64,000 bases of DNA from a virus (IMGVR_UViG_3300000976_000011:32001-96000), one strand, 5' to 3'. Shown: positions 1 through 61,002, counted from the stretch's first letter. Notes: generated by a model from the letters alone, not told the origin. Made by a program: numbers and translations.

Positions 1-1027
1 TTAATGGTAATATTCTTTTTATTTGAGCTTTTTCATTATTTTTAATAGCTTCGAAGCAGGCAAATTGACAAAAAGTAATTTCAGTACCAAAAGTTGTGAG
101 ATATCCATCACGCTCTAAATTATTCTTATAGAATTCAAATAATTCTTCAGATTCAAACTCAAAGAATTCATGTTGGTGATCTCTAATAGATAAAATTATG
201 TTCTCCATGGCGTTATTGTTATTCAACTTAACATCAGGAAAAACGAATTCCATACCACGTTTAGCACCAGGACCTACAAGACAATAGTTATCATCTTCAT
301 CTATATGTTTTAAGTCTTCAGACCTACTAAAATTGCATGGAGGATGATAACCAAAATATGGTCCTATGCCTCTATGACTAATTAACCATTCACAAACATC
401 AGATAATTTATTTTCTTTATCAATCACTACAGAGCTAAGACCTAAATCGTCCAAATGCACTATCCATTCTATCATATCAGATAAATGAAATTTTCTTTGA
501 GGGTCAACATATTTTTCTCTGCAATAATTTCTTGCAGCAGTCTGTAATGATGTCTGTAATTGTGTTTTACCCCACACGGCTAACTTCATTTGATTTATAT
601 TTAGGTTCTCATTAATAAAATCAAAGTATTTAACGTCCTTTCTATAAAGATCAAAATCTATTATATTAGAATAATCTAGAGAGTTGGTGGCCACTAGGGT
701 AAGTGTTGGCATTCCAACAAATTTTACTACCATAGCATTAAGAATTTTATTTCTTAATGAAGTATCTTTATTAAATACAAAATTTTCTAGCCAATATACT
801 TCAGCGTGCTTAGATCGATTTGGATTCCAATATGAAACTTCTTGTCTCATAGCAGGCCCAAATAAAGGATTCTCTACATACTCATCTATACGATCTGATT
901 CTCTAAGACATTCTCGCTTAAAGAAATCTAAGACCCATGTATTAAAATAATCAAAATTTTCTTTATTGGTCATATCTTTAAGTTGACCTAAAGATAGCGG
1001 TTTTTCTTTATAAGATTGTATCTTCAA
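1..1027 (-). CDS. aGPT-Pplase1 / amino acid:DNA transferase (AADT)-like DNA hypermodification protein, HhH-glycosylase fold; 3'-truncated by the window edge
   Basis: Not in ORF track. Manual translation gives an open frame from TTG 1027 (or ATG 973) to the edge with YWNPNR, HRGIGPYFGYH, LVGPGAKRG and EITFCQF motifs typical of alpha-glutamyl/putrescinyl-thymine pyrophosphorylase clade 1. Confidence 0.75.
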   Translation of the reverse strand, partial: MKIQSYKEKPLSLGQLKDMTNKENFDYFNTWVLDFFKRECLRESDRIDEYVENPLFGPAMRQEVSYWNPNRSKHAEVYWLENFVFNKDTSLRNKILNAMVVKFVGMPTLTLVATNSLDYSNIIDFDLYRKDVKYFDFINENLNINQMKLAVWGKTQLQTSLQTAARNYCREKYVDPQRKFHLSDMIEWIVHLDDLGLSSVVIDKENKLSDVCEWLISHRGIGPYFGYHPPCNFSRSEDLKHIDEDDNYCLVGPGAKRGMEFVFPDVKLNNNNAMENIILSIRDHQHEFFEFESEELFEFYKNNLERDGYLTTFGTEITFCQFACFEAIKNNEKAQIKRILPL

Positions 1028-1749
1028 TCGACTTTCCTACGGTAAAATAAATCAAATCCAAATAATGAACCCGTATACTCTACTCCAAATGCTTCGCGCA
1101 TAACAGGATCCTTACCAACAAAACCGTAATTAGGTGTAGCTGAGACTAATTCAAAACCTTGAGCTAGAATGTACTTTTGATAATTAGCCTCGAAATCCAG
1201 AATATATTTTTCTGAATGAACTTCGAGAGACATCTCTTCGACAGAATTCGGTACAATAAAGTTTTCGTTTAAAAAATCTTTTTCAGCGCCTTCGATATCC
1301 ATTTTAATATGCGTGTATTTCCACATAGATAAAATAGTGTGAATATTTAAATTCTTTACTACGGTTTTAGTTAAAGCTTTTGTAACTTTTGCTGGATTAA
1401 CAGTTGCACTACATGAAAACTGTTTGCTATTTCTTATATAGAAAGCGATCTCTGGATCTTCAGAGTTAGAAACAGCCGCATTTAAAATTTTACCGTTTTC
1501 AGGCATATTATTTAATGCGCACTCATAATTAGATTTAAGAGCTTCGATACCTAAATATGCCTTTACGTTGGCTTCTTTACATATATGAGCAAAGCCACCG
1601 CAGTGAACACCTAGATCTAAAACTACAGAATTTTCATCTAATGAGAAATATGTATAATTTTGTAGACATTCATTTACCATACCTCGGTCAGTACTTTCAT
1701 AGATTGGGTCATCTCTAATAATGACTCCTTTATATTCTTTATAATTCAT
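1024..1749 (-). CDS. FkbM-family SAM-dependent methyltransferase
   Basis: VVLDLGVHCGGF motif I, NAAVS, IKMDIEGAE, SLEVH. Confidence 0.85.
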   Translation of the reverse strand: MNYKEYKGVIIRDDPIYESTDRGMVNECLQNYTYFSLDENSVVLDLGVHCGGFAHICKEANVKAYLGIEALKSNYECALNNMPENGKILNAAVSNSEDPEIAFYIRNSKQFSCSATVNPAKVTKALTKTVVKNLNIHTILSMWKYTHIKMDIEGAEKDFLNENFIVPNSVEEMSLEVHSEKYILDFEANYQKYILAQGFELVSATPNYGFVGKDPVMREAFGVEYTGSLFGFDLFYRRKVD

Positions 1750-1919
1750 TTCTTTAATTTCCTACAATACGCAAGCGCTTGATTATGACGACGTAATTGT
1801 TCTTCTACACATTTTATAGCTAATTTTACACAAGCTTTTTCTTCATGATGGCAGTCATCAAAATTAAGCTCACCTAGAAAATCTTTTAAATACTCTATAG
1901 TTTTCTCATAATCTTTCAT
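1746..1919 (-). CDS. small hypothetical protein (57 aa, MKDYEKTIEYL...)
   Basis: Manual translation; ATGA overlaps at both ends couple it to its neighbours. Confidence 0.55.
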   Translation of the reverse strand: MKDYEKTIEYLKDFLGELNFDDCHHEEKACVKLAIKCVEEQLRRHNQALAYCRKLKK

Positions 1920-2302
1920 AAATGTCTCACGTTCTCTTTTTCGACTAAATCATGCACTAATAATATCACATGCACGTCTGGATGTACATCAGTAATTTCT
2001 TTGGCTTGAACAGGGTCATCTTCAAAATGAATTCCTACTATATATCTCTGTTTAAGTTTACTGATGATGTTAGCTTTATGTTTACCAGATGATTGCCTAG
2101 TTTTTTTAGAAAAATGTCTAGGATTTAAAAACAATTTATTCTTAATTCCTTTAGACTCTAACATTTCTAAAGTCTCTTTTTCTTCTTGAAATGATCTTCC
2201 TGTTATGATGATATCGTCAGGGCCTGGATAGACCCCTCCGTATTCTCCCATAAAGATAACGCCGTCGATATCAAAAGTATTAATTATTTTTCTAGTAGTC
2301 AT
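1916..2302 (-). CDS. HAD-superfamily phosphatase (capless)
   Basis: FDIDGV motif I, ITGR motif II, conserved K, HFEDD motif IV. Confidence 0.85.
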   Translation of the reverse strand: MTTRKIINTFDIDGVIFMGEYGGVYPGPDDIIITGRSFQEEKETLEMLESKGIKNKLFLNPRHFSKKTRQSSGKHKANIISKLKQRYIVGIHFEDDPVQAKEITDVHPDVHVILLVHDLVEKENVRHL

Positions 2303-2505
2303 CAGTTATATCCAAAAATAAATCTTCCATTTGATCCATAGATTCTCTAAATTGTGTTAATAGATCAAACATAGCTTCTTTTTCTAATTCTACATTTGCA
2401 TTTCTAGCTGTCGAATAAGAAGCTTCCCAAATAGAATCATTTTGTTGAATTATTTCTTCTAATTTATTTTCAACATCAGTTCTTAAATCATCAAATTTTT
2501 TCATG

Positions 2506-2853
2506 TTATCCTATTCTCTGATATATTAAAGCTGTGACTATTGTCCATTCATCAAAACTATCACCATAACCTTCTTTCATCATATCAAATAAAACTTCTT
2601 TATTTCTAGCGCAAACATTGTGCTCCATTTTAAGCAGTCTTGATGGTATATTAAAAAAATCTCCAGTCCAGAAACCTAGTGATATTCCCTTTCCAACCAA
2701 TTTATCTTCTTTATCATCACTAAACTCTTCTACTAAATGAAATTTTTCATTAGGCTGTATAGCCCACTTTAAACCCTTTCTTATAGTAACACCTATATCA
2801 AAACATGCTAGATCAAATGTGTGGTCTAAATTTTTTAGTTGTTTAGTAGTCAT
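2506..2853 (-). CDS. hypothetical protein, possibly ASCH/PUA-like
   Basis: GVTIRKG motif and size resemble ASCH domains; weak. Confidence 0.35.
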   Translation of the reverse strand: MTTKQLKNLDHTFDLACFDIGVTIRKGLKWAIQPNEKFHLVEEFSDDKEDKLVGKGISLGFWTGDFFNIPSRLLKMEHNVCARNKEVLFDMMKEGYGDSFDEWTIVTALIYQRIG

Positions 2854-4117
2854 TTTTAGAATCCTGAAAAGTATATTCTAAATCAGATACTACTGGATCT
2901 TTAGTAGCTAATTGTTTTCTAGTGGTTGAAGTTAACTCTCGACGCGCTAAAGCGTCACACTCAAATTTTGCATCTTCAGTTTTCATTTGTACTGGTGGGC
3001 TTTTCTGAGTCCAAGCAGATGGGCCACGTAAGTAACCTACTAATCCCATCTCAGCAGCTACTTGAGCGAAACGAATTGCCGAAATAACAACTCCACCTGA
3101 ATTAGGTGAATCTTGAACAGATAATCTAGCAGTTAATTCATAACGAGCGCCAGCAAAACCATAAGCAACAATATCAAAATTAGCAATCTTATTGTCAGAC
3201 CCAATATATTCGCCACCTGGTTTTTGCTGTACGGTTAATGAGGGACCAGCGAACAATGTCATACCTTCTATAGACTCGTCTCGTACATGATTCTGACCTT
3301 TCAGAACGTTTTCTTTAGAAATATGTTTATTTTCTAAGCGGTCCTGTTTAGCCATATTTAGAAAATCAGTATTTGCTGTACGACCTGTCCGAATATGTTC
3401 TTGGCCTTGAGTAGAACCAGATGCCATATTGGTTTGGATGTGTTGAGTTACCATTAAACCAGAATCAATCATAGCTCCTTGTAAAACTTCAGACATTCTA
3501 GAAGCTCCCCATGCTGAACGCATATCAGAACCTACAAATGTTAAACCTGCATTAATAAATTTTTGTTCGACTCTTTTAGTATCTTCAGTAGAAATTAAAG
3601 TTGGAATACAATTAACAAAATGAACGCCTGCTTTAAGTGCTACATCTACCCAAAATTTCGAAGCTTCTTCAGACCCAACAGGTAAATAATTTACTAACAT
3701 ATCTACATCGAACGATTCAATTAAATCTACCGCTTCAGTGAAAGACACAGCCGTGTCAGCTTCAGTTCTAAAAGAGACATCTTCAGGATAATCATACATA
3801 TGAGGAGCTACGCCATCCAACAAAGGAGCAGAAAAAACTCCCGCTGAGTGTGGAACTACATTAGAAGTAATTTCTTTTACATGATTCATTGCACAATTTG
3901 GTTTAGCTAAAATTGCTTCTCTAAGATTTATTCCTACCTTTCTACGATCAACATCAAAGCCAATAACATATTCAATATCATTAACAGTATAGCCGCCAAT
4001 ATCTTCATACATTAAGCCGACTTTATCTTGAGGATTATCTTGATAATATTGAGTTCCTTGAATAAGGGAAGAAGCGCAGTTACCGACACCGATGATGCCA
4101 ACACGAATTTTTTTCAT
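2843..4117 (-). CDS. ino1: myo-inositol-1-phosphate (inositol-3-phosphate) synthase
   Basis: IRVGIIGVGNCASSLIQG Rossmann motif, FDVDRRKVG, NYLPVGSEEA, NTDFLNM, DSPNSGGVV as in archaeal/actinobacterial MIPS. Confidence 0.93.
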   Translation of the reverse strand: MKKIRVGIIGVGNCASSLIQGTQYYQDNPQDKVGLMYEDIGGYTVNDIEYVIGFDVDRRKVGINLREAILAKPNCAMNHVKEITSNVVPHSAGVFSAPLLDGVAPHMYDYPEDVSFRTEADTAVSFTEAVDLIESFDVDMLVNYLPVGSEEASKFWVDVALKAGVHFVNCIPTLISTEDTKRVEQKFINAGLTFVGSDMRSAWGASRMSEVLQGAMIDSGLMVTQHIQTNMASGSTQGQEHIRTGRTANTDFLNMAKQDRLENKHISKENVLKGQNHVRDESIEGMTLFAGPSLTVQQKPGGEYIGSDNKIANFDIVAYGFAGARYELTARLSVQDSPNSGGVVISAIRFAQVAAEMGLVGYLRGPSAWTQKSPPVQMKTEDAKFECDALARRELTSTTRKQLATKDPVVSDLEYTFQDSKNDY

Positions 4118-4504
4118 TTTTATACCTTTATGTTTATATCAGTTTATTTAAGTGACAAATTTGACCAGATTATCTGGAGTAGGTCACATATCTATTTATG
4201 ATTTGTAGCAGACAAAAATATTTCCATTTCTGCGCCTTCAAGAGTTATATAATCAATCATATTAGAATTATATAACAAAACAAATCTTCTGTAAATATCT
4301 TCAATTTGTGCTCGTTGAATAATAAGTCCAGTATATTTGTTAAGATTTTCTTCTTCAATTTCTTTTAAAACTGCTTTATTAGAAACTGCTTTGCGTCGAA
4401 ATATCCGTAAACCATTAGACATTTTTTCTCGAATTTGTTCAAAATTAACTTTTAAGAAATAATCTATTTCATTCTCTATAATAGGAAAATTATTCTTAAA
4501 ATCG

Positions 4505-5293
4505 TTAATCGGAATTTGAATTTGCATATTCGCTCTCAGGATATAATTTGTTATAAGAAGATTTTGTAATATCTAGCATTCCAGTTTTAATAAAATGATC
4601 TACAATATAAAAATGTCTTTCATATACGTGAAGATTTTGAACCTGCCAAAACATATTACCAACTGATAAATTTAAATCTTTAGCTAATTCTTTAAGAACA
4701 TAATCTTGCCACGCTTTATCATTACGATATCCAAAATAAACATCATTAGATCTCATTTGGACGACGCAATCAAGCTTGCCATGTCGAATATAATAGCTTA
4801 CTGAGTTAGTACAGACAAAATCATTTTTGCCGTTTTCACAATAATCATAATGCATGGTAGGTCTATTATAAATCATAGATGCTCTACGAGAATCTGGATT
4901 AGTCTTTAATTCTTGGAAAACATTATTATATTGATCTCCATATTTTTCTGAAAAAATAAGTAATCCATAATTAGAATTAATTTCGCCATCAGGGTTAGCA
5001 GCATATGACCACGCTTGTGGTGGCTGAAATTGTCTACCATTAATATCTAAAATATTACTTGATTGACTTTCATACCATTTTAATTCTTTTTCAATATAAT
5101 CTTTATTTGGAGTACCGAAAATGGCTTCTTCGTTAGCTTTAAAAGAAGCTCCTATTAATTCTATAGTTTTTACGCCTGTTTTATCAGTAGTAAAATGTTT
5201 ATAGAATAACATATCAGCAAAATGTTCTCTTATATTATCCATATCTGATGTGTTTTTCCACTTCATAGGTTTACCTTGTTCTATAATAGCCAT
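4505..5293 (-). CDS. 42: dCMP hydroxymethylase (T4 gp42-like thymidylate-synthase homolog)
   Basis: EINSNYG, DSRRASMIYNRP, DFVCTN, MRSNDVYFGYRNDKAWQ (Asp at the cytosine-specificity position), NLHVYERHF. Confidence 0.85.
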   Translation of the reverse strand: MAIIEQGKPMKWKNTSDMDNIREHFADMLFYKHFTTDKTGVKTIELIGASFKANEEAIFGTPNKDYIEKELKWYESQSSNILDINGRQFQPPQAWSYAANPDGEINSNYGLLIFSEKYGDQYNNVFQELKTNPDSRRASMIYNRPTMHYDYCENGKNDFVCTNSVSYYIRHGKLDCVVQMRSNDVYFGYRNDKAWQDYVLKELAKDLNLSVGNMFWQVQNLHVYERHFYIVDHFIKTGMLDITKSSYNKLYPESEYANSNSD

Positions 5294-5462
5294 TATGTCG
5301 TTAATTTTTTAATAGCAGCATCTTTTTCCTTATGTAATATATTCAGAAAAATATCTAGTTCATCATCACTTATTTCCAAATCTTGAACAATGTCATCTAC
5401 ATGTTCATATCCCATTTCGTTTATAACATTAATGATTCTATTAAAAATTGCATTTTCATACA

Positions 5463-6110
5463 TTATTTAAATACCTCGTAATCTTCTTCTGATTGACCTT
5501 CCATTTGTCCTCTGCAATATGATACAAAGAAACTAAGATAGTTAATTGCATCCTTAGCTGAATCTTCTAAAGATTCGAAATTAGTATCATAATTACTATC
5601 ATCTCTCATGGCTTCCATGACTGACCGCATTCGAAGCATTTTAGCATGAACGATTTCTTGAATAGTAAATAAGCCAGATGGATAATAATCGGATTGTTTT
5701 ACGGAACTATTAGGATTCTGATAGTCTTGAGATTTTTTAAGTTGAAGTTCTATGCATTCAGCTAAAACGTTTACCGATTCTTTAGATTCGTCTAAATCGT
5801 ATTTATTGTATAGGTAATCTTCTATATATGAAGGCAGCTCATGATCTTTTTCAGACTCTTCATAATTATCTGATCGATTCATAGAACCTAAAGCTTGTGC
5901 GATAGGATCTAAAAATTCTGGTTCTTTCGAATATTCAGTTTTACCCATGCCAGATAAAGCATTAACTATAGATGGATCAGTCATTATTTTATCATGATTT
6001 AACATTTGGGTTTTTATTTTATCAGCTTGTTCTTCTGTCATTTTTTCAACATGACCTGTAAAAGGCGCTGTTGGTTGCTTATTGGTCATACATTTCTCCG
6101 AAAGTGCCAT
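5463..6110 (-). CDS. DUF1599/Nmad1-like all-alpha nucleotide-modification-associated protein
   Basis: C-terminal KKSQDY...KMLRM...ESLEDSAKDAINY pattern. Confidence 0.65.
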   Translation of the reverse strand: MALSEKCMTNKQPTAPFTGHVEKMTEEQADKIKTQMLNHDKIMTDPSIVNALSGMGKTEYSKEPEFLDPIAQALGSMNRSDNYEESEKDHELPSYIEDYLYNKYDLDESKESVNVLAECIELQLKKSQDYQNPNSSVKQSDYYPSGLFTIQEIVHAKMLRMRSVMEAMRDDSNYDTNFESLEDSAKDAINYLSFFVSYCRGQMEGQSEEDYEVFK

Positions 6111-6480
6111 GATTACCTTTATGGGATGGTGGAAGCCATCCTTCCGGCTTCATTAAATCAGGAAAACCAAAAGGATTGGGTCTACCTTCTTTAATTCCTC
6201 TAATTTTTGCAAGATTAGCATTCATAACTTCAGAATAAGCTTTATCTGAATCTACTTTAAACAAATCAAGCGTACCTAAACAAAATACAATAATATCTAT
6301 TAATGCATCTACTATTTCTTCTGGATTTTCTTCGTCTACGGCATCACATAATTCAAAATATTCTTCTTGAATCATATTAAGCCTTAAATCCAAATGATCT
6401 CGATGTCCTTGGTTATCTAAATATTTTATTACGTCATGGAAGTCAAATTTGGCGTGCATTTTTTCTATTAAATCGATCAT
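6079..6480 (-). CDS. MazG/PRA-PH-like NTP pyrophosphohydrolase (candidate dCTPase/dUTPase)
   Basis: EEYFEL...EIVDALID, V..ANLAK, KPEGW.PP motifs. Confidence 0.8.
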   Translation of the reverse strand: MIDLIEKMHAKFDFHDVIKYLDNQGHRDHLDLRLNMIQEEYFELCDAVDEENPEEIVDALIDIIVFCLGTLDLFKVDSDKAYSEVMNANLAKIRGIKEGRPNPFGFPDLMKPEGWLPPSHKGNHGTFGEMYDQ

Positions 6481-11812: not shown

Positions 11813-12227
11813 AAGTAACTATAAAGAAAAGTATTAATTTAGAAATAAGTGGTAAGACCATTGAAATTTCAGAAGATGCAGCAAGAAATTTATTAGACCA
11901 ACTGGAAGATGTAATTAACGAATTGGATTATGAAGAAACAGAATTTGTTTTTAATTCAACAAAAATTAAATGGCCACCGGAGATTATATAATGAGATTAT
12001 TAGATTTAGAAACCGACATAGCTTTATATCATACTAATACTATTTGTGAGTTGATACGTGATAAGATTAATGAACAAAAGAAAGAAGTGTGTTATCCTCC
12101 TGAAGATTTCGAAGAGAAACTTCCTATGGATAACGAGATTATTATGAGTCTCATAGAGAATGAATTCAAAGAAGATTTCACTATTATAAAAAGAGCAGAA
12201 GACATTTTAATTAAATGGTAATACATA

Positions 12228-13304
12228 ATGACGAATAAAAAGGTCGTTATATTAGGCGACACTCATTTCGGATTTAAAAAAGCTTCAGATATATTTTCAA
12301 ATTATTTCGAAGACTTCTTAACAAATCAATTCTTTCCTTACTTGGAAGAGCACGATATTAAAGTAGTTATTCAATTAGGTGATCTTCTTGATAGCAGAAA
12401 ATATATTAATGCTAAAACTTTAAAATTTGTTAATGAAAAATATTTAGAAGAATTTGAAAAGAGAAAAATAACTCTCTATCAAATGGTAGGTAATCATGAT
12501 GTCTATTATAAAAATACCAATAAAATCAATTGGATAGATAACATACTAAGTTTTAGTAATTACGAATATGTCAATTTTTGTGATTCGTGGGAAACTTACG
12601 AGATATTTGGTGAGAAGTTTGATATTATTCCATGGATCAACGAAGAAAATGAATCTAAAATTTTTGACTTTATGGACAAGTCTAATTCTAAGTATCTATT
12701 TGGTCATCTAGAATTATCAGGTTTCGAGTTAACTCCTGGCCATTTTTCACAACATGGTCATTCTGTTAAACCATTTAAGAAATATGATAAAGTAGTTTCA
12801 GGACATTATCATATAAGAAGCAAGAAAGGTAATATTACATATGCAGGTATTCCTTATCAATTAACTTGGTCAGATTGTGACGATAAGAAAGGTTTCTGGG
12901 TTTTAGATGTAGAATCTAATAGAATGACTCATAAAGTTAACCCTAGAGCTATTTTTAAACGTATAGAATATGATGAAGACTTTATAGATATAAAAGATTT
13001 TGATTTTAATAGTTATGAAAATTCTTATGTTAAAGTATTTGTCAGGAACAAGAAGGATGATGCAAAATACAATGATTTCGTTACACGGCTTAATTCTATA
13101 GCAGTATATGATTTATCCATTATCACAAATAATGAAATCATAACTAACGATATAGATATTGAAGGTTTAGAAGTAGAAGACACTTTAACTATTCTTAGAA
13201 AATTTATTTTAAAGAATGTAAATGACAATATGAACTCAGATAATATAGTAAAACATGTAGAAAATTTATATAATGAAGGTCTAATTTTAATGAAGGATGT
13301 ATAA
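12228..13304 (+). CDS. 47: recombination endonuclease subunit gp47 (Mre11/SbcD-like)
   Basis: GDTHFG, LGDLLD, GNHD, GHLEL, SGHYH. Confidence 0.95.
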   Translation: MTNKKVVILGDTHFGFKKASDIFSNYFEDFLTNQFFPYLEEHDIKVVIQLGDLLDSRKYINAKTLKFVNEKYLEEFEKRKITLYQMVGNHDVYYKNTNKINWIDNILSFSNYEYVNFCDSWETYEIFGEKFDIIPWINEENESKIFDFMDKSNSKYLFGHLELSGFELTPGHFSQHGHSVKPFKKYDKVVSGHYHIRSKKGNITYAGIPYQLTWSDCDDKKGFWVLDVESNRMTHKVNPRAIFKRIEYDEDFIDIKDFDFNSYENSYVKVFVRNKKDDAKYNDFVTRLNSIAVYDLSIITNNEIITNDIDIEGLEVEDTLTILRKFILKNVNDNMNSDNIVKHVENLYNEGLILMKDV

Positions 13305-13997
13305 TGATTAAAGAATATACATCTAGTGCTATATTTGAGTATAGTAAAAAGCAAATTAAGTTCTTTGGGCCATATTCTATATTGGACATGAATCTAGCAG
13401 TTCTTAATATCTATAATTTAATTGTTAGTTTGTCTGATTTAGAATCATTTAAATTTGAGATAGATTCAGAAGAGTATAACTATATTGATATAGAGTATAA
13501 AATATTAGGATCAAAATTAACTATTATGTCGTTTTCTCCAGAATACTCAACTATTACGGAATACAATGAATAATCAAGAAATATTAAATTTGCCAATTAA
13601 AACCTGGTATGAGCCAGTAACTATTAGAGAATTCTTAAAAGATCTTTTAAAGGTTTTAATTGTTGAACAGGAATCTTTTTCAGGAAAACGACCTTTCGGA
13701 GATTCGGATTGGTTTTGGGTTTTATCTGAGCCTTTAGTAACGTATAAGCTTATAGATGGCAAATGCGACGATAATGGAATGATAGAAGATTTTAATCACC
13801 AAGAAGCCGAAGATTTATTTTTAAAACTTATAGATGCATTATGAAAAATAAAGAAACAGATATAGAGTATAATTTAATTAGAATGAATTTATGGAAAGAT
13901 GCATGGGTTTCAACAGCAAATTCTAGCTCATGCCGACTAACAGAAACTGCTACAAAATATGCTGATATAGCATTAACAGAGTTCGATATAAGATTTC

Positions 13998-23520: not shown

Positions 23521-24519
23521 ATGTACACCGATATAGAAGAACAATATTCTCAATTATTAAATCATGTAAAATTATATGGTCATCAAGTAGATAATGATCG
23601 AACAGGAGTCGGCACTAAAAAAGATTTTGGTCATTTAATTAAATTAGATGTAGAAGAAGTAGGGTTCCCAATTCTTACAAGTAAATTTGTACATTTTAAA
23701 TCTATTGTAGTTGAACTATTATGGATGTTAAATGGCGATGATAATACCGATTATCTTAAAGAGCACGGTGTTACTATCTGGGATGAGTGGGCAGATGATA
23801 ATGGAGATCTAAATGGCGTATATGGAAAACAGTGGCGACATTGGCATAGAAATGTTTACAAGCGAGAAGTAAAATCTTTGGAGGATCTATGTGATATGTT
23901 CGGTCGCCCTGAAGAATTTACTGGCCACACTGCTATTTTTAAAAATGGTCAAACTTGGAACTATTTTAATAAAGAAAATTTCTTTAGATGGGATCAATCT
24001 ATAGATCAAGTAGAACAGCTGATTAATACAATTAAAACCAATCCAAATGATAGGCGACAAATAGTTACAGCTTGGAATGTAGATGCATTAGACAGTATGA
24101 ATTTACCACCTTGTCATCATACCTGGCAAACATTTGTTAGAGGTGACACTTTAGATTTAATGATGCATCAGAGAAGCTGTGATATGTTTCTAGGTGTACC
24201 TTTTAATCTAACAGCATATTCTCTTTTATTGTGCATTTTGGCTAAAATAACTGGATTAAAACCTGGAAAATTTACATGGACGGGTGGCGACTGTCATGTA
24301 TACTCTAACCATGTTAATCAAGTTGATAAGTATTTAGATAATTATTATACCAATGCTTCATCAAATGGCGGTATTCAATATCCAACTCTTTGCTTTAATG
24401 ATGATATTGATTTTTCAAGCTTACAATCATTTTTAGATACAACATTGGATAATCCTGAAAGAATATTTTTAATGGATTATAAACATATGGGTTCTATTAA
24501 AGCGGATGTGGCAGTGTGA
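23521..24519 (+). CDS. td: thymidylate synthase
   Basis: DRTGVGT, IWDEWAD, LPPCH, QRSCDMFLGVPFN (Asn, dUMP-specific), HVYSNH. Confidence 0.96.
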   Translation: MYTDIEEQYSQLLNHVKLYGHQVDNDRTGVGTKKDFGHLIKLDVEEVGFPILTSKFVHFKSIVVELLWMLNGDDNTDYLKEHGVTIWDEWADDNGDLNGVYGKQWRHWHRNVYKREVKSLEDLCDMFGRPEEFTGHTAIFKNGQTWNYFNKENFFRWDQSIDQVEQLINTIKTNPNDRRQIVTAWNVDALDSMNLPPCHHTWQTFVRGDTLDLMMHQRSCDMFLGVPFNLTAYSLLLCILAKITGLKPGKFTWTGGDCHVYSNHVNQVDKYLDNYYTNASSNGGIQYPTLCFNDDIDFSSLQSFLDTTLDNPERIFLMDYKHMGSIKADVAV

Positions 24520-27278: not shown

Positions 27279-27368
27279 GCGTAGACTGAGCATTGGCGAG
27301 CTCAAGTGGCTGTAACCCACCCGCATATAAATAAGTCTGTATAGGTTCAACTCCTATTCTGCGCACCA
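27279..27368 (+). tRNA. tRNA-Tyr(GTA)
   Basis: GTGG-CTGTAAC-CCAC, long variable arm, CCA. Confidence 0.88.
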
Positions 27369-27376
27369 CAATATAA

Positions 27377-27452
27377 GCACTTGAAGCATTTATTGGATGA
27401 TGCCCGGTTTTGTAATCCGGTGAATACGGCTCGATTCCGTACTAGTGCTCCA
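27377..27452 (+). tRNA. tRNA-Thr(TGT)
   Basis: CCGG-T-TTTGTAA-T-CCGG, CCA; two stem mismatches. Confidence 0.82.
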
Positions 27453-27455
27453 AAA

Positions 27456-27576
27456 TTTAGTAATCGCTTGAATGTGATAATGAATTAATATTAAACATGT
27501 CAATGATATTATGAATTTATTGCTTGGATAAAGCACTAGGCAACTAGAGCTGATGGTTCGAATCCATCTTACTAAA
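27456..27576 (+). ncRNA. Ser-tRNA-like RNA with large AT-rich insertion in the D region
   Basis: TTTAGTA/TACTAAA acceptor, CTAG-GCAA-CTAG variable arm, GATGG-TTCGAAT-CCATC T arm. Confidence 0.55.
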
Positions 27577-51638: not shown

Positions 51639-52391
51639 TTACCTGATTTGAGGACAATTATCGAAATGATAAGGTTTCATATTAGCTAAAGATCCAGTTT
51701 TGCCGCAATTTGGGCATAGACCTCTAGGCCTAATTTTTCCTTTAAGAGCTTTAGATACTGCATCTTTATGACTCTGAGATATTTTTTTACCCTTATTGGC
51801 TTTCGAAATTTTAGCTTTTACAACATTTGAGTGATCTTTTCCATAAAATGGATTATTTTCGCCTGAGTAATTTTGAGAATTATATGTAGCTCTCCTAATA
51901 GAAGCTTCTTTTTTTCTTTTGTCGGACCAAGAATCGGACATTTTGTCTCTAGTTTCTTGAGAATAAATATGACCGTACATAGGGTTGTTTTCTGGCTCAG
52001 CAAGACGTTTCTTGGTACTCTTTGATAATTTGTCTCTAGTTTCTTGAGAAATTATTCTATTTGACATACTCACAGAAAACTTTTTCTTTATTTTATCATA
52101 AAGAAAAGAATTGATTTTATTTTTGCTGGTTGATCCCATCATAACTATAGCAAATAACATAGATTTTTTATCCTTTCCTTTTAAAAATCTAGGTAATAAT
52201 AAATGAGCTATAAAGTGTTCTCTAGCAGTAAGAAGTACTAAATTATCGGGTCGATTAGATCCACCTAAACTTCTAGGAATTATGTGATGTTGTTCGAAGT
52301 AATTTTTAGAGTTTTTAACTCTATTTAGTTTACTTCTTGATTCCATTAAGTTATAATACCACGTGGAATATTTGTTTTTAATTTCGTTCAT
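51639..52391 (-). mobile_element. HNH homing endonuclease with NUMOD3 and C-terminal zinc motif
   Basis: EQHHIIPRSLGG..NLVLLTAREHFIAH; CPNC...YHFDNC; TATAAATA 52397-52404. Confidence 0.9.
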
Positions 52392-58813: not shown

Positions 58814-59368
58814 ATGAGTTTAACTAAAATAAAAGGCGTCGGCGAAAAAGTAGCTAAGTCTATTACAGAATTAACAGGTATTAGTACGCTTGAAGATTTT
58901 GCAGTGATTGATCAAGACACTATTCAAAAAATTGCTGATGAGGTTCCTGGTGGTCCAGCTAAAGTAGCTGGTTGGGTTGAGCAAGCTAAAGGATTAGTTG
59001 ATGTTGTGGTTGAGGAAGAAATTGTTGATCCTGAAGCTGAAATTCAGGAAGATGAAGAAGAAACAACCGTTGAAGATGTTGTTGAAGATTCTGAGGAAGT
59101 TGAGGAAACTATTGAAGAAAATCCTGCAGATATTGTTGTTTCTGATGTTGTCGATGATAATATTTCTGATGATGCTGTTGAAAAGTTAGATGTTTTAGAT
59201 TGGTTTGAATTGAAAGGAATGAATATGCTAGAGCTTGGTTACGCTCGATCGAGCATTTTAATCGCTGCAGCTTCATATTATGGATTAGAGAAGCGTGATG
59301 TATTAAAGAATATTAATTTAAGTATTAGCACCAAAGATAATCTATTAAAGGCTATTAAAGGCGTTTAA
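58814..59368 (+). CDS. HhH-domain protein with long acidic linker
   Basis: LTKIKGVGEKVAK helix-hairpin-helix; E/D/V-rich middle. Confidence 0.55.
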   Translation: MSLTKIKGVGEKVAKSITELTGISTLEDFAVIDQDTIQKIADEVPGGPAKVAGWVEQAKGLVDVVVEEEIVDPEAEIQEDEEETTVEDVVEDSEEVEETIEENPADIVVSDVVDDNISDDAVEKLDVLDWFELKGMNMLELGYARSSILIAAASYYGLEKRDVLKNINLSISTKDNLLKAIKGV

Positions 59369-60037
59369 TATGATTATAAGAGAAGAATGGTACTAATTAA
59401 AAGGAGCTTATTGCTCCTTTTAATTTTACTATTATTAACAAGTGTTATATAATGTTTAAAATTAAAAATATATTAATAATGGAGTTTTATCATGCATCAA
59501 GAATTTCAATTTCAGAATTACATCATACGCCATACTGAAAATAAAAGTATCGCTTTCCACAAAACTTTTAAAGATAGATTTCAAAAATTTGTTGGATTGG
59601 ATGCAGTATCTCAAGCCAAAGATTGGGTAAGAAATTTCTGTGAAAAATCAAGAACTTCTTGGAAAAATGTAAATCAATGTTGTATAAGTTTTAATTCTAC
59701 ATTCATTTATGATATAATGGGCGAAGAAGATTTCTTTTCATTTGATATGATTAAAGAAGCCGATGACATATTTTTTAAAGTTTATTGTGATTATAACAAA
59801 GGTCAATTTAAAACATATGGAAAATCTACTAGAAAGAAGCCTTGTGTTGGAGCCGAATGGCATGGTTCACCGAATTTAATTGAACAGAATAGATTTTTGC
59901 CAAATGCTAGATACTCTTTAGAAGAAATTGAAAATAATACTTTTAAATTAATATTTGATAGTATCATTGAAGATAAGTCCCAGAGATACTCTTTAGGTAT
60001 TCCTGGAATAATGTTTTATAGTATGAGGAAATAAATT

Positions 60038-60298
60038 ATGAGAAATTCTGGCTTTACTTTGATAGATCTAATGATTGTTATATCCATTATTGGAATTTTA
60101 GCTGCGGTTGATTTATACTTTCTTTATCAAGATTGGAAAAATCAAAAATTAAGCGGAGAAAATAGCCCAAATATAATTAAAATGGATAGTATATCTGACA
60201 TTACAAAAGAAGAAAGATTTGCTCAATTATTAGTTGAAAAGCATAGAATTGAAAAGGAAATAGAGAGGTTAAGTAAATTAGAGAAGCTTGTAAAGTAG
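60038..60298 (+). CDS. type IV pilin-like N-terminal methylation-motif protein
   Basis: MRNSG/FTLIDLMIVISIIGILAAV. Confidence 0.75.
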   Translation: MRNSGFTLIDLMIVISIIGILAAVDLYFLYQDWKNQKLSGENSPNIIKMDSISDITKEERFAQLLVEKHRIEKEIERLSKLEKLVK

Positions 60299-60468
60299 GA
60301 ACATGCATTTTATCTCTTGAAGATAATAATGTAACACCTCTTATTCAAGTCAAGCAATAATATTTTACTTTTATTATTTATTAGTATATAATTAAATTCC
60401 TTATATAGATGATTTAATATTAATTTAATTGAGGAACATATTATGAATTAGTTAATAGAAATATTAAC

Positions 60469-60499
60469 AAAAATGGGAACCTAATGGTTCCCATTTTTT
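60469..60499. terminator. bidirectional intrinsic terminator
   Basis: AAAAATGGGAACC/GGTTCCCATTTTTT between convergent units. Confidence 0.75.
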
Positions 60500-60561
60500 A
60501 TTCTTCGATTTTAAATAAATTTTTAATTGTATTGAATAATTCCTTTAATCCAAATTTTCTT

Positions 60562-61002
60562 TTATCCAAAAATAAGATTATTGATATTACTCCTACACCT
60601 AGCAAGATAATTATTAATTCTTTTTCCATAACCTATCCCGGCTCCCCCAGCAAGTATAAGTTGTAACAATAAAAGATTAACGGAGATAATCCAAGAAATC
60701 TCTGCTTCCGCAATCTCGGCTATTTTAGGTAAATCAATAATCACTCGCAGACAATATAGATATGCTATTGCATGATTTATTTCATTACCTTTTAAATCTT
60801 TACATCCTATTAATGCTATAACAGCTCCAACTAAGAAAGAGAATGACGAGAAATCATTCAAATTAAAAGTTGGTAATAGAAGACCTAATGTATTTGTAGT
60901 AAAAAGAGCTATAGATACTTGTTTATTGTGTTTAAAGCATATAAAGGAAGTCAAATATACTATTAAAAATATTATGTTCTCCATCATAAAATTTGTTATC
61001 AT
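60562..61002 (-). CDS. multi-pass membrane protein in a small minus-strand membrane-protein operon
   Basis: Several hydrophobic segments; overlapping neighbours include unlisted single-TM ORFs. Confidence 0.55.
   Translation of the reverse strand: MITNFMMENIIFLIVYLTSFICFKHNKQVSIALFTTNTLGLLLPTFNLNDFSSFSFLVGAVIALIGCKDLKGNEINHAIAYLYCLRVIIDLPKIAEIAEAEISWIISVNLLLLQLILAGGAGIGYGKRINNYLARCRSNINNLIFG

Follow-up and report, generated by a model that had tools for sequence, protein, structure and literature searches.

A candidate phage operon for attaching an inositol-type group to 5-hydroxymethylcytosine in DNA

Why would a T4-like phage encode an enzyme of inositol synthesis in one operon with genes for the replacement of cytosine? 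The question is raised by IMGVR_UViG_3300000976_000011:32001-96000, a stretch of 64,000 nucleotides (hereafter the window). It corresponds to bases 32001-96000 of an IMG/VR virus record which is 141,675 bp long and has direct repeats at its termini. The operon lies on the minus strand and extends from 8331 down beyond coordinate 1 of the window. All of its open reading frames (ORFs) share this orientation, and 8 of its 11 gene junctions overlap by 1-32 nt, as expected from the initial annotation of the window, which described one co-oriented operon with overlapping genes. That annotation read the operon as a pathway in which 5-hydroxymethylcytosine (5-hmC) is incorporated into DNA and then substituted with inositol. 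On balance, and with some reserve, we favour a related view: the operon and two genes beyond the left edge of the window would form a cytosine hypermodification pathway attaching an inositol-type group, the chemistry of which we infer. The two proteins on which this view turns are P0001, a member of PF18723, and P0002, its SGNH-fold partner.

The genes preceding inositol synthesis concern cytosine replacement. A MazG-like all-alpha NTP pyrophosphatase is encoded at 6079..6480, and its assignment is confirmed by Pfam PRA-PH (2.2e-10), phrog_671 (2e-22) and the MazG-like protein DR2231 in the PDB (3.7e-5). It is likely a dCTPase, which would supply dCMP and exclude cytosine from DNA in the role of T4 gp56. 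The dCMP hydroxymethylase (5-hmdCMP synthase) at 4505..5293 is of the T4 gp42 type. Its residues 17-248 match PDB 1b5e with an E-value of 1.5e-72, compared to 1.6e-10 for the best ThyA, and its motifs DFVCTN and RSND...RND align with DFMCTN and RSND...RND of T4 gp42. In E. coli ThyA numbering, assigned by eye via the shared motifs, the catalytic Cys is present, Asp occupies the L143 position, Asp169 is kept, and Asp occupies the N177 position. Published specificity criteria are an Asp at N177 for dCMP, an acidic residue at L143, and D169N as the signature of a 5-hydroxy-dCMP synthase (PMC13326640). Because of the acidic residue at L143, Asp169, and the Asp at N177, the enzyme is assigned as a 5-hm-dCMP synthase and not as the D169N type of RB69. 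An identity as an RB69-type 5-hydroxy-dCMP synthase was considered and rejected, as Asp169 is kept. The cytosine specificity that the initial annotation had read from the Asp in RND is thereby sustained, as is the presence of a separate canonical thymidylate synthase ThyA, found on the plus strand at 23539..24516 (G000:55539-56516; PF00303, 294 bits). Hence, the phage has two thymidylate synthase homologues, and the one in the operon is the specialised copy. Just upstream of the operon, the same strand encodes UvsX, a family-B DNA polymerase, a gp1-type dNMP kinase, gp32, gp59, and a dCMP deaminase; the G+C content is about 30%. No cultured phage matched the operon by megablast, and no close cultured relative was found. 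In the related contig L007, a C5 cytosine DNA methyltransferase (PF00145) is encoded at 12187-13395 after the SGNH gene, although this phage is expected to contain hmC instead of C.

The putative inositol supply is encoded by two further conserved genes. A myo-inositol-3-phosphate synthase (MIPS) family enzyme at 2843..4117 matches PF01658 (Inos-1-P_synth) with 32.7 bits (cut-off 27), and by far its best relative is M. tuberculosis Ino1 (1gr0; E 1e-53, residues 3-386), in agreement with the earlier call. The motifs GxGNCA (NAD-binding), K..ISK, DNK, DSPNS, and QK.PP are invariant in seven phage homologues and align with Ino1. We take the Lys and Asp of these motifs to be the catalytic residues, as in the archaeal and mycobacterial structures. 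Its constant partner (1916..2302) is a capless HAD phosphatase of 128 aa with motifs I-IV in its sequence (DIDGV, TGR, K, EDD) and a match to phrog_415 (9e-10). The Pfam match of this protein is weak (Acid_phosphat_B, E 0.012; 15.5 bits, cut-off 27), and a sequence search of the PDB returned nothing, but the family call made initially stands. Its predicted role is to dephosphorylate inositol phosphate, whether free or already bound to DNA.

Gene linkage in related phages considerably strengthens the argument that this supply serves DNA modification. Related contigs were gathered by a scan with MIPS. At least 458 IMG/VR contigs encode a MIPS relative, and the 80 closest were analysed, 47 of which have at least 3 kb downstream of MIPS; the 80 contigs are mutually related, and counts among them are not independent events. 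The HAD gene is found downstream of MIPS in 47 of these 47 contigs, and P0001 and P0002 in 44 each. The usual gene order is MazG, the C-terminal part of a 215-aa protein, the thymidylate synthase homologue, dCMP deaminase, MIPS, HAD, P0001, in some cases FkbM, and P0002. This order is preserved even in L013, where the identity of P0001 is only 31%. HAD also accompanies MIPS in the cultured Ralstonia phage RP13, Stenotrophomonas phage Moby, and Caulobacter phage Cr30.

A second genomic context was found in about ten contigs (L067, L093-L100, L102), one of them 131 kb long. Its gene order is TET/JBP, an FkbM-like gene, a PF18724 AADT, MIPS, HAD, and a PF18751 P-loop kinase, and its MIPS is 73-76% identical to that of the window. 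This context is independent evidence. In it, the source of the hydroxymethyl group, the Pplase clade, and the candidate activator all differ from those of the window, and the cassette of MIPS, HAD, and in most cases FkbM is the same. P0002 and the P-loop kinase are mutually exclusive across the two contexts. PF18751 fails to detect gp54, the M6 kinase of proven activity, and the BLAST alignment is confined to the P-loop; the kinase of the second context is therefore a candidate by position rather than a proven 5-HMUDK orthologue. Two cultured phages carry comparable sets: Cr30 encodes TET (gp129), AADT (gp123), MIPS (gp121), and HAD (gp118), and RP13 encodes an AADT-like protein (ORF118), a PF18723 protein (ORF120), MIPS (ORF125), and HAD (ORF127). 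For Cr30 gp122, the match to TAGT is no more than weak. In the Cr30 record (L006), gp129 (59353-60681) is annotated as an SNF2 DNA repair protein and has a Tet_JBP domain (8.7e-23), and gp114 (51788-52333), annotated as terminase small subunit, has a weak match to P-loop kinase 3 (E 0.003).

Which protein would attach the group to DNA? The candidate is P0001, a 362-aa protein encoded across the window edge (window 1..1027, genome 31939-33027). The window contains its first 342 residues, and the last 20 lie outside. P0001 matches PF18723 with 1.5e-9 and 38 bits (cut-off 25). This family is now named HMUDK_hel and was formerly aGPT-Pplase clade 1; BFVD entries bear both names. The label aGPT-Pplase1/AADT given initially is therefore right in its first half, under the older name, and wrong in its second, as AADT enzymes belong to PF18724 (clade 2), for which P0001 gave no match at E<=10 and the genome gave none either. 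Among the BFVD matches of P0001 are SP10 gp186, a kinase-Pplase fusion, and the clade 1 protein of PhiW-14. By hhalign, it is homologous over its full length to the PF18723 protein of M6 (96%, E 3e-9, 296 columns). In 47 diverse homologues, E316 and C320 are strictly and Q321 nearly invariant, and the E-x3-C spacing is common to P0001, the AADT M6 gp51, and the AADT of L067. In M6 gp51 and ViI gp247, mutation of the conserved Cys or Glu abolishes activity. No PDB sequence matched P0001. The closest solved fold to its AlphaFold model (pLDDT 93) is the AADT PaMx11 gp46 (8z2n; Z 9.8, root-mean-square deviation 4.4 A over 241 residues), followed by HhH glycosylases. Together, the E-x3-C spacing and the HhH-glycosylase-like fold of the model support a mode of action like that of AADT, not membership of that family. 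P0001 is predicted to be a DNA 5-hydroxymethylcytosine group transferase.

In the thymidine systems, such a transfer is preceded by a kinase, and the initial annotation had predicted one beyond coordinate 1. The next large gene there (genome 30210-31280) encodes instead P0002, a 356-aa protein whose N-terminal domain is Rossmann-like and whose C-terminal domain is of the SGNH type, and PF18751 has no match in the whole 141.7-kb genome. A scan for Walker A motifs found no plausible small P-loop protein, and within the cluster such a motif occurs solely in the 215-aa protein. The SGNH fold of P0002 is recognised over residues 155-343 (Z 13.8 to 7e16, Foldseek probability 1.0), and S164, G186, N212, and H333 are invariant in 40 homologues. 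For the N-terminal domain, a structure search of the ESM Atlas gave only generic Rossmann/SDR likeness (TM about 0.6), and a feature search gave no usable match. Searches of P0002 against Pfam found nothing significant, and those against PDB sequences found nothing. In Aeromonas phages 44RR2.8t and 31, a single 795-aa protein combines both homologues, that of P0002 at the N-terminus and that of P0001 behind it.

In 44RR2.8t (L005, 4154-8134), the fusion gene (ORF233c) directly follows a gene for a sodium:solute symporter (ORF234c). This phage has a gp42 homologue and no MIPS, and it may import, rather than make, the group that is attached.

The P0002 family is far wider than that of P0001, with 1245 against 44 matches. 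The T4-like contigs L109 (3888-6957) and L110 (4952-7004) keep the frame of MazG, thymidylate synthase homologue, dCMP deaminase, and SGNH protein, while MIPS, HAD, and P0001 are replaced by proteins of 386 aa, about 295 aa, and, in L109, 344 aa. The 386-, 296-, and 344-aa proteins had no Pfam or profile match; this may be another hmC modification cassette. The occurrence of P0002 with different cassettes suggests that it acts on hmC in a general way, with the cassette determining which group is attached.

A further link between P0001, P0002, and DNA is found at their C-termini. Among the 371 ORFs of the genome, only four end in GLF: the DNA polymerase (genome 21212-23686), a 77-aa protein (27293-27526), P0002 (30210-31280), and P0001 (31939-33027). 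In most homologues of both families, the ending is (S/T)LExFF, which we take, from the T4 literature, to be the T4-type clamp-binding pattern. The tails of P0001 and P0002 change along with that of the polymerase; in L011, for instance, the three tails are LEDFFG, LECFFE, and LEAFMV. P0001, P0002, and the polymerase thus look like carriers of a shared putative sliding-clamp-binding tail, and, judging from these tails, P0001 and P0002 probably act on DNA at the gp45 clamp. The T4 alpha-glucosyltransferase has reportedly been found to bind gp45. In the second context (L067 5667-8206, L094, L096), the TET/JBP and AADT proteins end in SSLEGFF and GLEVFYN, next to STLEDFFG in the polymerase.

From these elements, the following pathway can be proposed. 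MazG, the gp42-type hydroxymethylase, and the gp1-type dNMP kinase very likely convert dCTP to 5-hm-dCTP, so that the DNA carries 5-hmC, and MIPS would convert glucose-6-phosphate to inositol-3-phosphate, from which HAD would strip the phosphate; both routes are backed by strong homology. In DNA, Cys320 of P0001 would then add to C6 of 5-hmC, Glu316 serving as acid catalyst. Whatever group the 5-methylene bears would leave and a hydroxyl of inositol would add, comparable to the serine oxygen in ViI, and the product would be an ether, 5-(inosityl-O-methyl)cytosine. P0002, located where the P-loop DNA kinase is found elsewhere, would probably turn the hydroxymethyl into a better leaving group, e.g., as an ester, or assist in another way. 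On cytosine, phosphorylation may not be an absolute requirement, given that C5-methyltransferases are able to replace the 5-hmC hydroxyl with thiols even if it has not been activated beforehand. Through their polymerase-type tails, P0001 and P0002 would probably ride the gp45 clamp behind the replication fork, and in phages which carry FkbM, the cyclitol would be O-methylated by it. The core of the scheme put forward initially, i.e., hmC, inositol from MIPS and HAD, attachment by a Pplase, and methylation by FkbM, gains much from the linkage in 44 of 47 contigs, the second context, Cr30, and RP13. It loses the kinase, DUF1599, and AADT, and its product remains a prediction.

A broader and more specific proposal is that cyclitols, sometimes O-methylated, are ether-linked to 5-hydroxymethylpyrimidines as an undescribed class of DNA bases, widespread in environmental T4-like phages and also present in Cr30 and RP13, and that the hmC lineage does without a kinase, its clamp-riding SGNH enzyme activating 5-hmC (for example by O-acylation) for the clade 1 Pplase. 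We offer this fuller version only tentatively, and in all its particulars it is doubtful.

Several findings weigh against the reading of the operon as an inositol-attaching pathway. Some concern the compound made. MIPS reaches only 216 bits (6e-64) with TIGR03450, far under the NCBIfam equivalog cut-off of 638, and contains two insertions. Its second-best PDB relative is a five-membered cyclitol-phosphate synthase (6k96) of the same family. The enzyme thus appears to be a divergent member whose product identity is not guaranteed. A cyclitol could consequently reach DNA by another route or as another compound: inositol phosphate could be attached first and lose its phosphate on the DNA to HAD, which would then act like a PNK phosphatase, the SGNH enzyme could form a phosphodiester or ester, or the cyclitol could be other than myo-inositol. 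The only family match of HAD is to phrog_415, a polynucleotide kinase family, and P0002 is an SGNH enzyme with invariant residues and a clamp-type tail, which would suit such a route. Nonetheless, the presumed catalytic Lys and Asp of MIPS are kept, Ino1 is by far its best match, and the E-x3-C chemistry of AADT joins groups to the methylene through C-N or C-O bonds, so that this variant seems unlikely.

Others concern the purpose of the supply genes. In Moby and in L073, MIPS and HAD occur without a Pplase, inside 7-deazaguanine clusters, and L012 has HAD, P0001, and P0002 with no MIPS in the visible part of the contig. MIPS and HAD might accordingly be an auxiliary metabolic pair (for osmolytes, lipids, or carbon diversion) which does not feed DNA modification, in which case the Pplase and SGNH proteins would attach something else or nothing; the presence of P0002 and the hydroxymethylase with other cassettes in L109 and L110 would fit. 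We consider this quite improbable. The pair abuts a Pplase-type gene in two otherwise different clusters (gp42, PF18723, and SGNH in one; TET, PF18724, and P-loop kinase in the other), it lies near Pplase-type genes in Cr30 and RP13, and it is still within a DNA-modification cluster in Moby and L073. Moreover, the gene overlaps resemble those of operons with translational coupling.

The cluster of Moby (L004, 7207-12621) and L073 (9962-14058) comprises FolE, QueC, DpdA/TGT, and QueE. No Pplase-type gene was found in the Moby genome, and the 540-aa and 244-aa proteins of L073 had no Pfam or profile match. A modification of purines may likewise draw on inositol there, or MIPS and HAD may have a more general role. 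In L012 (7571-15463), a phage with a family-A polymerase, the region contains genes for an SGNH homologue, HAD, a thymidylate synthase homologue, dCMP deaminase, and a thymidylate-kinase-like protein, and the Pplase is fused to MazG in one 629-aa protein.

The remaining objections bear on the catalyst. Clade 1 Pplases have no demonstrated activity, and PF18723 is now named after the helical domain of a kinase. The clade 1 protein of M6, gp55, is dispensable for the reconstituted step, and P0001 shows no significant similarity by hhalign to M6 gp51, an AADT of clade 2 (probability 2%). No known activating kinase is found in the genome, and we know of no precedent for an SGNH enzyme acting on DNA. 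P0001 could on these grounds be an accessory for DNA binding or base flipping, leaving the SGNH enzyme as the sole catalyst, e.g., acylating or de-acylating 5-hmC, and the wider distribution of the P0002 family, which also occurs without P0001, is in keeping with this. Such an arrangement is, in our view, very unlikely, given that Glu and Cys are invariant in the diverse P0001 homologues at the catalytic spacing of AADT, and that SP10, which makes glutamylthymine, has only the kinase-fused Pplase of the PF18723 kind according to the 2018 gene table.

How does the proposed attachment of an inositol-type group by P0001 relate to known DNA modifications? In the thymidine hypermodification systems of M6, ViI, PaMx11, SP10, and PhiW-14, 5-hmdU is processed by the 5-HMUDK kinase and an AADT/aGPT-Pplase (PMC8989533, PMC5889632, PMC11472151), and a hydroxyl, the serine oxygen, serves as nucleophile in ViI. 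The scheme of a hydroxymethylpyrimidine and a Pplase-type transferase is already known (PMC8989533). As in those phages, a thymidylate synthase homologue would make the hydroxymethylpyrimidine, and an HhH-glycosylase-like E-x3-C enzyme would act after replication; the kinase-Pplase fusion of SP10 gp186 even has the same layout as the P0002-P0001 fusion of the Aeromonas phages. In contrast, the base here is cytosine (gp42-type enzyme, Asp at the N177 position), the Pplase belongs to clade 1 (PF18723) rather than to the characterised clade 2, an SGNH-fold protein stands in place of the P-loop kinase, and the group would be a cyclitol from phage MIPS and HAD instead of an amino acid or polyamine. 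Indeed, the co-occurrence of PF18723 with a P-loop 5-hm-pyrimidine DNA kinase is not seen in this genome. New features of the present proposal are a cyclitol as the attached group, cytosine as the base, a clade 1 protein as candidate catalyst, an SGNH protein in the place of the kinase, and tails of the clamp-binding type.

The glucosyl-hmC of T-even phages and the arabinosyl-5-hydroxycytosine of RB69 and DLP3 offer a second comparison. There, too, cytosine is replaced before replication by a dCTPase, a thymidylate synthase homologue, and a dNMP kinase, and the appended polyol is synthesised by phage enzymes, including a small HAD sugar-phosphate phosphatase (PMC13326640). Unlike in those phages, no glycosyltransferase or NDP-sugar genes were found here, and instead of a glycosidic bond, a carbocycle linked through an ether is to be expected. 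The operon enzyme also differs from that of RB69 and DLP3 in keeping Asp169, as is typical of hydroxymethylases. In the whole 141.7-kb genome, GT1, GT2, and TAGT had no match. The T4 beta-glucosyltransferase had none either, but this search matched no control genome, and absence is not established for it. The initial statement that the window contains no glucosyltransferase or DNA kinase can thus be extended to the whole genome for GT1, GT2, TAGT, and PF18751. No report of inositol on DNA was found by full-text search within the literature covered.

The second context, with its 5mYOX, P-loop kinase, and AADT (L067, L094-L102, Cr30), resembles the TET/JBP (5mYOX) clusters, in which the P-loop kinase and AADT are known companions of 5mYOX; neither MIPS nor inositol is named as a component of these clusters in the searched parts of two descriptions (PMC13229309; bioRxiv 10.1101/2023.12.21.572611). 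No TET was found in the phage of the window itself. Finally, the supply resembles that of mycothiol-type pathways (Ino1 and a phosphatase), in which MIPS followed by a phosphatase yields free or conjugated inositol. Here, however, the genes are phage-encoded, and the genome has no MshA-type glycosyltransferase.

If the pathway exists as proposed, a carbocyclic polyol would be a new chemical class among phage DNA modifications, and Pplase/AADT chemistry would be extended from thymine to cytosine. It would also give the clade 1 Pplases their first function and provide a function for the phage SGNH family, which comprises more than 1200 clusters; should the kinase-free role of the SGNH protein hold, this would be the earliest known case of an SGNH enzyme working on DNA. 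Since many viral contigs from the environment carry the module, it could affect the evasion of restriction and other defences, and also how environmental viral DNA can be sequenced, cloned, and treated with enzymes. For the labelling of 5-hmC, it would be useful to have an enzyme which replaces the hydroxyl with a different nucleophile, perhaps with no need for ATP. The harmless cultured phages Cr30 (Caulobacter) and RP13 (Ralstonia) make the inositol idea directly testable.

The operon contains further genes of a less constant or less clear nature. The FkbM-family SAM methyltransferase (1024..1749) is confirmed by TIGR01444 (2.3e-11, 44.3 bits, cut-off 37.7) and PF05050 (26.6 bits, cut-off 22.7), with only chance-level matches among PDB sequences. 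Among the 80 gp42-type relatives, 3 encode it, and 2 of these belong to the 47 contigs whose flank is long enough. Homologues of about 30% identity lie immediately upstream of AADT in L094-L100 and L102; it is therefore an accessory gene in the gp42-type lineage and nearly constant in the TET/AADT lineage.

Out of the seven families named in the initial annotation, six hold, and the one that fails is Nmad1/DUF1599, assigned to the 215-aa protein at 5463..6110. PF07659 (DUF1599) has no match anywhere in the genome at E<=10, and a relaxed Pfam scan of this protein gave nothing significant. No role is assigned to it. Within phrog_18404, it corresponds to the C-terminal part, and the MazG protein corresponds to the N-terminal part. 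Its conservation is limited to the C-terminal ~100 residues, always encoded between the MazG and hydroxymethylase genes, and its orthologues in L007, L011, L013, L109, and L110 have 113-159 aa. Its Walker-A-like motif ALSGMGKT was considered as the mark of a hidden kinase and rejected; it falls within a stretch that is, by eye, of low complexity and missing from the orthologues.

Small ORFs without an assigned role are found at 5293..5463 (56 aa, from the ORF list), 4192..4527 (111 aa), 2506..2853 (115 aa), 2292..2504 (70 aa), and 1746..1919 (57 aa), all on the minus strand. Pfam searches with the 115-, 111-, 98-, 70-, and 170-aa ORFs found nothing significant, and neither these nor the 57-aa ORF were found in the 80 related contigs (tblastn, 1e-5). 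The 111-, 115-, and 70-aa ORFs are thus not conserved, and at the place of the 111-aa ORF, the relatives encode a dCMP deaminase.

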